From Candidatus Helarchaeota ASGARD archaeon Hel_GB_B (GTDB lineage Archaea > Asgardarchaeota > Lokiarchaeia > Helarchaeales > HEL-GB-B): 5,836 nt of DNA. Below the pieces are notes generated by a model, which saw nothing but the letters and a program-made list of their open reading frames with translations, was not told where the DNA came from and made no database searches. Below are positions 2,531-5,035 of the stretch, in pieces. The translations under genes and the position numbers were made by a program. The stretch lies in the NCBI GenBank assembly GCA_005191425.1, contig SUPR01000163.1:1-5836 (forward strand). Reading direction: 5' to 3'. The number at the start of each line of letters is the position of its first letter. Position 1 is the stretch's first letter.

Positions 2531-3298
2531 ATGTCTCAAAAAATAATAAACATTCCAAAAAGTTCGAAGGGTGGTTTAAACGGGCTTCATTTTGAAACCG
2601 GAAAACCCTATGATGAAATTCCCATTGTTATTTTAGCACATGGGTTCACCGGCGATCAGCATGAATGGGGAAGATTTACTAAAACTGCCCAGGAATTCAA
2701 TAAAGCAGGATTTGATGCCATAAGTTTTGATTTTTCGGGTTCAGGAAAAAATCCCCGAGAACCAGTTACACTTTTTAAGCAAGTTCAAGATTTAAAAGAT
2801 GTTCATGAATGGGTAAAATCCAAGGGTTATAAGAAAATAAATGTTCTTGGGTTAAGTTTCGGAGGTTTAACAGCCCTGGTTGCAAATTTACCAAATATTA
2901 ATGCTACTGTTTTTTGGGCGCCAGGATTTTACGTTAAACGCGCTTTCCCTAAAAAACATATTTTTCTCATGTGGCTACAGTCAACATTTTCAAAGAAACC
3001 CCATAGTATGCCATCAGCGAATAATGAACCAATTTTAATTAAATATAATTTTATGAAAGAAGTAATCAAGTTGGACATCGATAAAATTCTTTCTAACTAT
3101 ATAACCCCCAGTATTGTGATTCAAGGCGATATGGATGAAACTGTGCATTATGATTGGAATTTAGAAGCATTTCAGCATATGCCGCAAGATGAGCATCATA
3201 AATTTGTTAAAATCGAAGGTGCTGGTCACGACTTTAAAGAAGCACATCTTGATCAATTTATTGAGAATTCTATTAATTGGATTAATAAATATAATTAA
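2531..3298 (+). CDS. Alpha/beta-fold serine hydrolase (esterase/lipase/peptidase S9-like)
   Basis: Oxyanion-loop LAHGFTG, nucleophile elbow GLSFGG (GxSxG), acid in IQGDMDETV and His in GAGHDF form a complete Ser-Asp-His triad in canonical order. No signal peptide is evident. Confidence 0.9.
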   Translation: MSQKIINIPKSSKGGLNGLHFETGKPYDEIPIVILAHGFTGDQHEWGRFTKTAQEFNKAGFDAISFDFSGSGKNPREPVTLFKQVQDLKDVHEWVKSKGYKKINVLGLSFGGLTALVANLPNINATVFWAPGFYVKRAFPKKHIFLMWLQSTFSKKPHSMPSANNEPILIKYNFMKEVIKLDIDKILSNYITPSIVIQGDMDETVHYDWNLEAFQHMPQDEHHKFVKIEGAGHDFKEAHLDQFIENSINWINKYN

Positions 3299-3300
3299 AT

Positions 3301-3313
3301 ATTTTTTCTCTTT
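3301..3313 (+). terminator. Oligo-T tract, possible archaeal terminator after the hydrolase
   Basis: ATTTTTTCTCTTT immediately follows TAA at 3296-3298. Confidence 0.35.
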
Positions 3314-3321
3314 CATAAATC

Positions 3322-3330
3322 CTTAAATAA
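3322..3330 (+). promoter_or_regulatory. Possible TATA box for the TIR-LRR gene
   Basis: CTTAAATAA, preceded by CATAAAT, ends 19 nt before CTG3350, which would place a TSS near the proposed start codon. Confidence 0.4.
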
Positions 3331-3349
3331 TTCGAAGTGATCGTCAATT

Positions 3350-5035
3350 CTGAAACCTATAAAAATTTTTATCAGTTATGCCACCAAAGATGCAGAGATT
3401 TTTCAAGTTCCCAAACTCGCCAAAATTTTAGAAAGTTACCGCGAAATTGAAAAAGTATATTACTGGCAAGAAGATGCATCAGGATCTAATATTAAATTTA
3501 TAGAAAAATATATAAAAATTGCAGATACTTGTATAATTTGCTACTCCAAAGCCGCAATCGAATCACAACCAGTAGAATTGGAGCGAGATATGGCAGAATA
3601 TTTGGGAAAACAGATTATACCTCTTTTTACAAATATAAAAGATGTTCCTCTAATTATTAGAGACCAAACAGGAGTGGATATTAAAAATAAATCGATCCAA
3701 ATGATTTCTCGTGATATTATCCAATTAATTCTAAAAAATAAATCCCTTTCTGGAGGGATATCCCACACAATAAGTTCAACTCCGGAATTAGAAAAAAAAT
3801 TAGAAGAAGAAAAAAGAAGAAATGAAATTGTTGATTATCACGGAACGCCTCTGTTGAAATTTGAATACGATGTTCTAATGGCTTTGGATGAAATCATTGG
3901 TGAAATTCCAATTGTATTTAAAGTAGATCGGTGTACTTTTGGGTTCACTATTAGGGAGAATCACGTGGTTCAATTAGGGCTTTTTCATAAAGAATTAACT
4001 TCTCTCCCTGAGAGTATAGGGAGTCTAACTTTGCTCACAGAACTATATTTAGGAGGTACTCAGTTAAATTCTATCCCCGACACGATAGGAAATCTAAAAT
4101 CACTCAAGGAACTGGATTTAGAGAATAATAAGTTAACCTATCTCCCCAAGAGTATAGGGAATCTAACTTCGCTCATATACTTAGATTTAATAAGTAATCA
4201 GTTAAACTCTCTCCCGGAGAGTATAGGTAACTTAACTTCGCTCAAAATACTATATTTAAGTGAGAATCAGTTAATCTCTCTTCCCGACACGATAGGTAAT
4301 CTAAAATCACTCAAGGAACTGGATTTAGAGAATAATAAGTTAACCTCTTTCCCCGAGAGTATAGGGAGTCTAACTTTGCTCACAGAACTAAATTTAGGAG
4401 ATAATCAGTTAAACTCTCTCCCGGAGAGTATAGGTAACTTAACTTCGCTCAAAATACTATGGTTGTATTATAATCAGTTATCCTCTCTCCCCGAGACGAT
4501 ATGTAATCTAAAATCACTCAACATACTATATTTGCATAATAATGAGTTAACCTCTCTCCCCGAGAGTATAGGGAATCTAACTTTGCTCACTGAGCTATAT
4601 TTAAGTGAGAATCAGTTAACTTCTCTCCCTGAAAGTATGGGGAACCTAAAATCACTCAAAGAACTAGATTTAGAGAATAATCAGTTAACCTCTCTCCCCG
4701 AGAGTATAGGAAACCTAAAATCACTCAAAGAACTCGATTTAAATAAGAATAAGTTAACCTATCTCCCAGAGAGTATAGGGAACCTAAAATCACTCAAAGA
4801 GCTAGATTTAGAGAATAATCAGTTAAGATCTCTCCCCGAGAGTATAGGAAACCTAAAATCACTCGAAAAACTAGGTATTGATAACAATGGGTTAACCTTT
4901 CTTCCCGACACGATAGGTAACCTAAAATCACTCACAAAACTATCTCTCAGCTATAATCAGTTGACCTCTCTCCCCAGGAGTATAAAAAAATGGATTAAAT
5001 ATTTAAAAAAGTATGGATGCAATGTTGCTAAATAA
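3350..5035 (+). CDS. TIR domain - charged linker/cap - 15x leucine-rich repeat protein (~561 aa; probable CTG start)
   Basis: Manual translation upstream of TTG3578 shows no stop until TGA 3338-3340. From CTG3350 it reads (M)KPIKIFISYATKDAEIFQVPKLAKILESYREIEKVYYWQEDASGSNIKFIEKYIKIADTCIICYSKAAIESQPVELERDMAEYLGKQIIPLF. This carries TIR hallmarks: betaA IFISYA..D, betaC, alphaC S.PV..E with Glu78 at 3581-3583, and betaD K.IIP.F. It is followed by ELEKKLEEEKRRNE, a cap region, and 15 LRRs of 23 aa (LxxLxLxxNxLxxLPxxIGxLxx). Confidence 0.88.
   Translation: MKPIKIFISYATKDAEIFQVPKLAKILESYREIEKVYYWQEDASGSNIKFIEKYIKIADTCIICYSKAAIESQPVELERDMAEYLGKQIIPLFTNIKDVPLIIRDQTGVDIKNKSIQMISRDIIQLILKNKSLSGGISHTISSTPELEKKLEEEKRRNEIVDYHGTPLLKFEYDVLMALDEIIGEIPIVFKVDRCTFGFTIRENHVVQLGLFHKELTSLPESIGSLTLLTELYLGGTQLNSIPDTIGNLKSLKELDLENNKLTYLPKSIGNLTSLIYLDLISNQLNSLPESIGNLTSLKILYLSENQLISLPDTIGNLKSLKELDLENNKLTSFPESIGSLTLLTELNLGDNQLNSLPESIGNLTSLKILWLYYNQLSSLPETICNLKSLNILYLHNNELTSLPESIGNLTLLTELYLSENQLTSLPESMGNLKSLKELDLENNQLTSLPESIGNLKSLKELDLNKNKLTYLPESIGNLKSLKELDLENNQLRSLPESIGNLKSLEKLGIDNNGLTFLPDTIGNLKSLTKLSLSYNQLTSLPRSIKKWIKYLKKYGCNVAK
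3992..4984 (+). repeat. Coding tandem repeat, 69-bp unit x ~14.4 (LRR array)
   Basis: Units start at 3992, 4061, 4130 ... 4958 with exact 69-nt spacing and no indels. Consensus is about cag tta acc tct ctc ccc gag agt ata ggN aaY cta aMW tca ctc aNN NNN cta NNN tta NNN NNN aat. Confidence 0.97.

Follow-up and report, generated by a model that had tools for sequence, protein, structure and literature searches.

The window analysed here is the entire contig SUPR01000163.1 (G000:C73; 5,836 bp), part of the 3.5-Mb, 94% complete metagenome-assembled genome (MAG) of the Candidatus Helarchaeota archaeon Hel_GB_B. Its plus strand carries an open reading frame (ORF) annotated as a leucine-rich repeat (LRR) protein, and the DNA upstream of the annotated start encodes a TIR domain in the same frame (Table 1). 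There is a reasonable likelihood that the gene, whose probable start is ATT3347, is intact and encodes a single-chain protein of the TIR-LRR type, about 562 residues long and cytoplasmic, for which we infer a role as an NAD+-processing or signalling sensor. The frame of the annotated ORF is open back to 3341, immediately 3' of the TGA codon at 3338-3340, and spans 3341-5035. The 79 codons upstream of 3578 hold no stop, although the genome has a GC content of 30%, and no ATG, GTG, or TTG occurs in this frame between 3341 and 3578. The original prediction, made from the letters of the sequence, had extended the ORF by 76 codons to CTG3350; the extension holds and amounts to these 79 codons, but CTG3350 is not the best start, as the spacing data given below indicate. 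Residue numbers such as E81 count from 3341 and refer to the 564-residue translation from that position (P0001).

Table 1. Features of the TIR-LRR locus in the window, with AUH-start genes elsewhere in the genome (AUH stands for AUA, AUU, or AUC).
Feature	Position	Strand	Basis or remark
Annotated LRR ORF	TTG3578..5035	+	Called start TTG3578
Full TIR-LRR coding sequence	3347..5035	+	562 codons and stop; open frame 3341-5035, domain content
Shine-Dalgarno (SD)-like GAAGTGATC	3334..3342	+	Matches the 3' part of the SD consensus GGAGGTGATC
TCG codon, aligned to the TTG called as start in ortholog L023	3341..3343	+	Alignment with L023; C3342 confirmed in X2 and X6
Proposed start ATT (AUU), most likely	3347..3349	+	In frame, 5 nt after GTGAT, spacing kept in L023
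TIR domain	3359..3745	+	Residues 7-135 from 3341; Pfam TIR_2, AlphaFold2 (AF2), Foldseek
TTG3578 and ATG3590, first canonical starts (annotated start)	3578..3592	+	Both inside the helix bearing the putative catalytic Glu
GAG, conserved putative catalytic Glu	3581..3583	+	Glu79 from ATT3347; Glu78 in the original prediction; E81 of P0001
Linker, helix, and LRR N-terminal cap with DYHGT motif	3746..3982	+	Linker residues 136-147, pLDDT <50; full-length AF2
14 canonical 23-residue LRRs, one degenerate repeat before them	4025..4990	+	Motif scan, TRF, Pfam LRR_14/LRR_8
C-terminal helix and tail (WIKYLKKYGC...) and stop	4976..5035	+	Helix 546-557 in model; tail conserved in P0002, P0171, P0173, L028
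Apparent AUH-start examples	C45:9630 folD ATA; C102:13553 gyrB ATT; C99:29220 cbf5 ATT; C96:28583 DNA methylase ATA		L069-L072

The TIR domain is evident from profile matches, conservation, and the modelled fold. Pfam TIR_2 (PF13676) matched residues 9-116 of the translation from 3341 (nt 3365-3688) with 38.2 bits (E 2.3e-9) for the isolated domain, 34.1 bits for the whole protein, and 38 bits in the genome scan, each above the gathering cut-off of 28 bits. HMMER, run exhaustively against 1.84 billion representatives, returned 602 TIR relatives at E <= 1e-3, and 56 of them make up the family alignment A2. In this alignment Y13 and W42 are invariant, and conservation is at least 90% at F10, S12, D17, S69, S75, E81, K90, P94, F96, and G111. 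The window protein retains 16 of the 17 near-invariant residues of the family, the exception being a conservative replacement of Met by Ile. The AF2 model of the domain, which was based on the profile of A2, has the flavodoxin-like beta-alpha topology of a TIR domain at residues 7-135 (mean pLDDT 90.1, pTM 0.85), with strands at 7-12, 36-41, 63-68, and 91-96. Its top Foldseek matches in the Protein Data Bank (PDB) were all TIR domains, those of SPARTA TIR-APAZ, AbTir (7uxu; TM-score 0.70/0.75, rmsd 2.8), C. elegans TIR-1, SARM1, BtpA, and RPS4, with a probability of 1.0 for SPARTA, AbTir, SARM1, and RPS4; the matching AlphaFold-DB clusters were named ‘TIR domain-containing protein’ throughout. 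The 56-sequence profile was needed for PDB matches to appear, as a PDB search with the single TIR sequence gave nothing meaningful.

The putative catalytic Glu, E81, is not only conserved across the 56 family TIRs but also invariant in 22 TIR-LRR proteins. Profile alignment against PDB sequences paired it with the Glu of the AbTIR motif WTNYELD, and likewise with a Glu in a ThsB and one in the TIR-TPR protein 9m0n, which is the position of the catalytic Glu that follows strand C in enzymatic TIRs. No names of active-site residues were found in the SPARTA paper for a comparison with W42. In the AF2 model, a product begun at TTG3578 or ATG3590 would be without TIR strands A-C. A complete TIR fold upstream of 3578, with a Glu at the catalytic position, had been proposed from the sequence at the outset; the HMMER and structural checks agree with the former and the profile alignment bears out the latter.

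The rest of the protein is an LRR module. The full-length AF2 model (pLDDT 87.5) places a disordered tether (136-147) behind the TIR domain, followed by a helix and a small cap (148-214), the LRR solenoid, and a C-terminal helix, and only about 80 residues (linker, helix, and cap) separate the TIR domain from the repeats. The motif scan counted 14 perfect 23-residue LRR units at residues 229-550, TRF gave a 69-nt period with 14.3 copies, and Pfam scored this part with 252 bits for LRR_14 and 160 bits for LRR_8, with further matches to LRR_4 and LRR_1. The solenoid was modelled at pLDDT 95-98. No transmembrane segment was predicted and neither a signal peptide nor a hydrophobic segment was found, the maximum Kyte-Doolittle 19-mer being 1.3, and Pfam gave no match to NB-ARC, NACHT, or any other further domain in the protein. 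The single soluble chain without transmembrane segment or NB-ARC/NACHT that was foreseen in the original prediction is thus what these data describe.

The start of the gene was approached through its closest ortholog, P0002 on Logan contig L023 (57-64% identity, with the same C-terminal tail), and through the SD statistics of the genome. The sequence GAAGTGAT is kept in L023, where the called TTG start overlaps it, and the window and L023 alike have an in-frame ATT exactly 5 nt 3' of GTGAT. The codon that is TCG in the window and TTG in L023 overlaps the SD (spacing -1) and for this reason is an unlikely start in either lineage. SD-like words form a sharp upstream peak in the 1,771 long ORFs whose start is unambiguous, with GTGAT located 3-6 nt before the start (mode 5). 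SD words of at least 6 nt have a spacing of 3-7 nt in 53 of 60 canonical genes, with a mode of about 5-6 nt, and a spacing of -1 in one of the 60. The 3' end of the 16S rRNA was not found in the MAG, and the anti-SD sequence was deduced from upstream-motif statistics only.

The same arrangement recurs in other genes of the genome. In 71 ORFs of at least 200 codons, the first canonical start is preceded by at least 30 open codons. The beginnings of these ORFs hold fifteen strong SD sites, the window gene itself being one of the 15 cases, and an in-frame ATA, ATT, or ATC is found at 3-7 nt from 12 of them (80%), as compared to 22% of 1,086 internal SD-like sites taken as a control (binomial p = 3e-6). 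No CTG occurs among the 15 cases, and CTG3350 has a spacing of 8 nt from its SD. In folD, gyrB, cbf5, and a DNA methylase gene, the Pfam domains start at residues 3-33 of the translation from ATA or ATT; the first canonical start comes 50-109 codons into the open frame and would delete the N-terminal motif of GyrB and the DPPY motif of the methylase. The genome appears to use AUA, AUU, and AUC starts behind an SD for a subset of its genes, including essential ones, and ATT3347 is most likely the translation start of the TIR-LRR gene, rather than CTG3350. As a result of such a start, the standard gene callers that accept ATG, GTG, and TTG would cut the gene down to an ‘LRR protein’. The infC and pcnB genes of E. 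coli have start codons of the AUU/AUA type, and they resemble the present case in that a weak, near-cognate codon stands at the optimal distance from an SD and is missed by callers. The difference is that here an Asgard genome is concerned, in which housekeeping genes (folD, gyrB, and cbf5) are affected together with the TIR-LRR gene. No paper was found on AUH starts in Asgard archaea.

The lack of a canonical start does not stem from the assembly. Two independent contigs from two other studies, X2 and X6, are identical to the window across 3324-3474; X2, from a 2017 marine sediment sample, covers 3000-3789 with a single difference at 3247, X6 covers 3324-3474 with none, and both confirm C3342. 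This identity argues that the TCG at 3341-3343, and with it the absence of a canonical start, is not an assembly error. Two other routes into the frame were considered and rejected. A frameshift from GTG3337, which would need a +1 shift, was set aside because the A5T5 run is present in the TIR frame of the paralog L002 and the ortholog L023 too and because the independent contigs are identical. Read-through of TGA3338 was set aside because no start exists upstream of it before TAA3296.

A different explanation is that the start has been lost, in which case the locus would be a fresh pseudogene or would yield a truncated protein from TTG3578 or ATG3590, with a TIR remnant that does not fold and with an action, if any, through the LRRs only. 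The alignment of the called TTG of L023 with TCG in the window is in keeping with such a loss, as is the lack of any canonical start upstream of 3578; moreover, a natural LRR-only protein with the same cap and tail exists (L028), another TIR of the genome is broken by stops (L068), and a same-genus genome is without a match to the window TIR. However, the TTG of L023 overlaps its own SD at a spacing that is seen in 1 of 60 canonical genes, whereas both lineages, that of the window and that of L023, have kept an in-frame ATT at the modal spacing. Neither 3578 nor 3590 is preceded by a strong SD, and the genome demonstrably uses ATA and ATT starts for essential genes. A pseudogene is the less likely reading in view of the intact frame, with its 79 stop-free codons at 30% GC, the retention of 16 of 17 near-invariant residues, and the use of AUH starts across the genome, and a lost start is considered improbable.

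The DNA around the start is more alike in the two orthologs than their proteins are. Window positions 3290-3480 and L023 positions 120-300 have about 88% DNA identity over 40 upstream nt and the initial ~130 nt of TIR coding sequence, as against only 57-64% identity between the proteins, and runs of 19-23 identical bases span synonymous sites. The sequence AGTTATGCCAC is common to the paralogs as well. The high DNA identity could stem from recombination, from gene conversion, or from a constraint at the level of RNA or DNA.

The TIR subfamily of the window protein is common in the class: of 41 related genomes, 30 have matches, with as many as 13 in a single genome and often several per contig. 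Most of its members have the TIR domain C-terminal to other domains, and a sizeable minority have an N-terminal TIR joined to LRRs. About 19 of the 150 best TIR representatives have an N-terminal TIR with at least three LRR motifs. Examples of TIR-LRR proteins include P0002, G036 (480 aa, TTG start), G009, G276, Bin_342 (455 aa, ATG start), and P0171 (585 aa). Those TIR-LRR relatives that have names come from NCBI records of Promethearchaeota, ‘Candidatus Hermodarchaeota’, and ‘Candidatus Lokiarchaeota’, in which they are annotated as LRR- or TIR-domain-containing proteins; one subfamily member without LRRs comes from Odinarchaeota. Phylum-wide, the architecture was found in at least 5 of 301 genomes, a figure that is a lower bound, as eight candidates were scored per genome and LRR matches crowded among them. 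An apparent bacterial ‘TIR-LRR’ (L055), which came up in a single-protein scan whose matches were mostly LRR-only, proved to have LRRs only and was discarded.

Besides LRRs, the fusion partners of this TIR subfamily include Ras/Arf-like small GTPases, which are joined to the TIR in either order in related Asgard genomes (P0003; L011:1477-2673). Within the genome of the window, the paralog L002 (G000:C130:2-1531; 40% TIR identity) has its TIR at the C-terminal side of beta-propeller-like repeats and one hydrophobic segment. The topology of L002 resembles that of a Toll-like receptor (TLR), with a sensor outside, a transmembrane segment, and a TIR inside, with propeller repeats replacing the LRRs; its ORF runs off the contig end. 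The third TIR_2 locus of the genome (L068; G000:C9:15355-15591, minus strand; 30 bits) has two in-frame TAA codons and probably represents a pseudogene from another TIR subfamily. In relatives, TIR genes occur in arrays, for example four in ~10 kb on G040:C38, and also on G013:C4, G015:C31 and C101, G014:C47, and G038:C17.

The LRR module, too, is found in other company. With its DYHGT cap and its W-x-K-x-L...G-C tail it stands alone in L028 (G018:C182:397-1131, 244 aa), and it follows a coiled coil or other unrelated N-terminal heads in P0172 and P0173 from other Promethearchaeota; the cap thus recurs on both LRR-only and other-headed Asgard proteins. By its distribution among these sequences, the LRR module with cap and tail is a mobile cassette.

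The public TIR-LRR proteins of Asgard archaea (MCK4383287.1, MFX0067103.1, MFX1294329.1, and P0171 from GCA_054386535.1) belong to the same TIR subfamily as the window protein (35-64% identity). They have the same order of TIR, linker, DYHGT cap, and 23-residue LRRs, and often the same C-terminal tail. They differ in having called ATG, TTG, or GTG starts and from 4 to ~15 repeats, whereas the window gene needs ATT. The original prediction spoke of a hidden TIR domain and left it open whether the architecture had been described; the architecture is neither hidden nor unique, since many Promethearchaeota records hold TIR-LRR proteins with ordinary starts and TIR-LRR proteins without NB-ARC are described in the bacteria Chloroherpeton thalassium and Rhodopirellula baltica (PMC7145615). 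The window gene is a further member of an architecture that is ordinary for Asgard archaea and already in the databases, and its notable point is the misannotation caused by the AUH start. No paper was found that describes or tests the Asgard TIR-LRR family, and a survey of Asgard defence mentions TIR only within known systems (PMC11291487).

With regard to function, analogy with enzymatic TIRs suggests that the protein would be a ligand-clustered sensor that cleaves NAD+ or signals. The LRR solenoid would bind a ligand, which would probably be a protein of foreign (viral) or altered-self origin, and binding would cluster the N-terminal TIR domains. The clustered TIRs would form composite active sites around the Glu and, once active, would cleave NAD+ or make an ADP-ribose-derived signal, either of which would stop the infected cell. 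The weak AUU start may serve to hold a potentially toxic enzyme at a low level. To our knowledge, every prokaryotic TIR with this Glu that has been tested biochemically is an NAD+-processing enzyme. Whether in bacteria, archaea, or plants or in SARM1, TIRs with this Glu cleave NAD+ or produce ADP-ribose-derived signals, for which self-association is needed (PMC7075850; PMC11249213), and those of archaea and bacteria are NADases (Essuman 2017/2018, cited in PMC7075850).

Several observations weigh against an intact NAD+-processing sensor. The Glu is also frequent in the non-enzymatic TIRs of TLR1/2/6/10 (PMC7075850), and the Trp that stands four residues before it in AbTir (WTNYE) is Pro in the window protein. 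The genus of the window is TIR-poor: the genome has only three TIR loci, and the same-genus genome without a match to the window TIR has already been mentioned; with L068, one of the three loci, broken by two TAA codons, recent decay is conceivable. No known defence genes were found beside the window gene or its relatives, and no conserved neighbour or effector was seen around five TIR-LRR loci. PADLOC gave no match for the full-length protein and, for the TIR alone, a weak partial match to ThsB (E 0.0015). In NCBIfam, the only similarity was of the LRRs to XopL, XopAC, and SlrP, below threshold, which indicates similarity of repeats and not membership.

Some of these points would suit a protein that is made in full but whose TIR is a non-enzymatic assembly or adaptor domain, recruiting other TIR proteins such as the beta-propeller paralog with its transmembrane segment, and not necessarily in defence against viruses; partner or surface sensing could be its role. 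The fusions of the same TIR subfamily to small GTPases, to a beta-propeller with a transmembrane segment, and to other signalling-type domains are consistent with an adaptor, as are the lack of a defence-island context at the locus or in relatives and the conservation of the Glu in non-enzymatic TLR TIRs (PMC7075850). Yet the prokaryotic TIRs with this Glu that are known to have been tested biochemically process NAD+ (PMC7075850), and the best structural matches of the window TIR are enzymatic (SPARTA, AbTir, and SARM1), which leaves a pure adaptor doubtful. In a more far-reaching reading, possible but less likely than not, the single-chain TIR-LRR proteins without a STAND module, the TIR-GTPase fusions, and the propeller-transmembrane-TIR proteins might together form a TIR-based network for sensing, found largely in Asgard archaea. 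In such a network, NAD+-processing TIRs would be clustered directly by a repeat sensor, and the toxic effector would be kept scarce by an AUU start that is weak on purpose.

Among the known systems close to the predicted sensor are the prokaryotic TIR_2 NADases (AbTir, ThsB, SPARTA TIR-APAZ, and archaeal TcpO), with which it shares the fold and the position of the Glu and for which oligomerisation is a known principle of activation. It differs from them in that the sensor is a fused LRR solenoid, Pro replaces the Trp of AbTir, and the activity is a predicted one. The SPARTA TIR was the top structural match, but Pfam found no APAZ or Argonaute in the protein or on the contig. As for Thoeris, the ThsB match is weak and partial, and no ThsA-like gene was found on the 5.8-kb contig, which is the only part of the genome that the search for ThsA covered. 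The bacterial TIR-LRR proteins (PMC7145615) resemble the window protein in their two-domain architecture without NB-ARC. Plant TNL receptors combine the same two domain types, and their TIRs, which rely on the same Glu, become active through induced proximity, but the central NB-ARC or NACHT that marks TNL and STAND NLR proteins is absent from the window protein. Similarly, TLRs combine the same domain types, but as membrane proteins of the opposite order (LRR, transmembrane segment, TIR) with a non-enzymatic TIR, an arrangement that the window protein does not have.

The shared domain types raise the question of descent, and the original prediction held that the protein might bear on the origin of eukaryotic TIR/LRR immunity. 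A relationship by descent between the Asgard TIR-LRR proteins and the eukaryotic TLR or TNL receptors is, however, very unlikely, and nothing in the present data supports it. The TIR belongs to the prokaryotic TIR_2 type, and its closest counterparts in sequence as in structure are bacterial (SEFIR, ThsB, AbTir, and SPARTA); the profile search ranks bacterial SEFIR, TIR-TPR, ThsB, and AbTIR proteins above Hydra TRR-2, SARM1, and TLR2. Compared with TLRs, the two domains stand in the opposite order, and neither a transmembrane segment nor an NB-ARC or other STAND module is present. The pairing of TIR with LRR occurs in bacteria too (PMC7145615), and both domains are highly mobile, the LRR module being joined to other heads within Asgard archaea. 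The TIR-LRR protein of the window alone says nothing on the origin of TLRs or plant TNLs.

The neighbouring genes on the contig are of the housekeeping type and encode, by Pfam, a flavoprotein, a pterin-binding protein, an alpha/beta hydrolase, and a membrane protein. The pterin-binding gene has 70% identity to Promethearchaeum syntrophicum and 45% to Lokiarchaeum ossiferum. That the host is an Asgard archaeon had been a proviso at the outset, and the 70% identity of this gene settles it in favour of an Asgard archaeon of the Lokiarchaeia type. The upstream alpha/beta-hydrolase gene (2531-3298) and the TIR-LRR gene (3341-5035) are in the same frame, with TAA at 3296-3298, 13 sense codons, and TGA at 3338-3340 between them; the intergenic gap is only 42 nt, so that co-transcription is possible.

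The AUH starts that appear in this Asgard genome, and probably in its relatives, imply that callers which accept only ATG, GTG, and TTG cut real N-terminal domains from proteins, in the present case a whole TIR domain. Losses of this kind would bias domain censuses of the ‘eukaryote-like’ and immune proteins of Asgard archaea. Beyond gene calling, Asgard archaea hold a sizeable, unstudied TIR subfamily that is fused directly to LRR, GTPase, and propeller sensors. Among its members, the Asgard TIR-LRR proteins would be a simple system in which to learn how a sensor made of repeats might switch on a TIR domain without a STAND ATPase.

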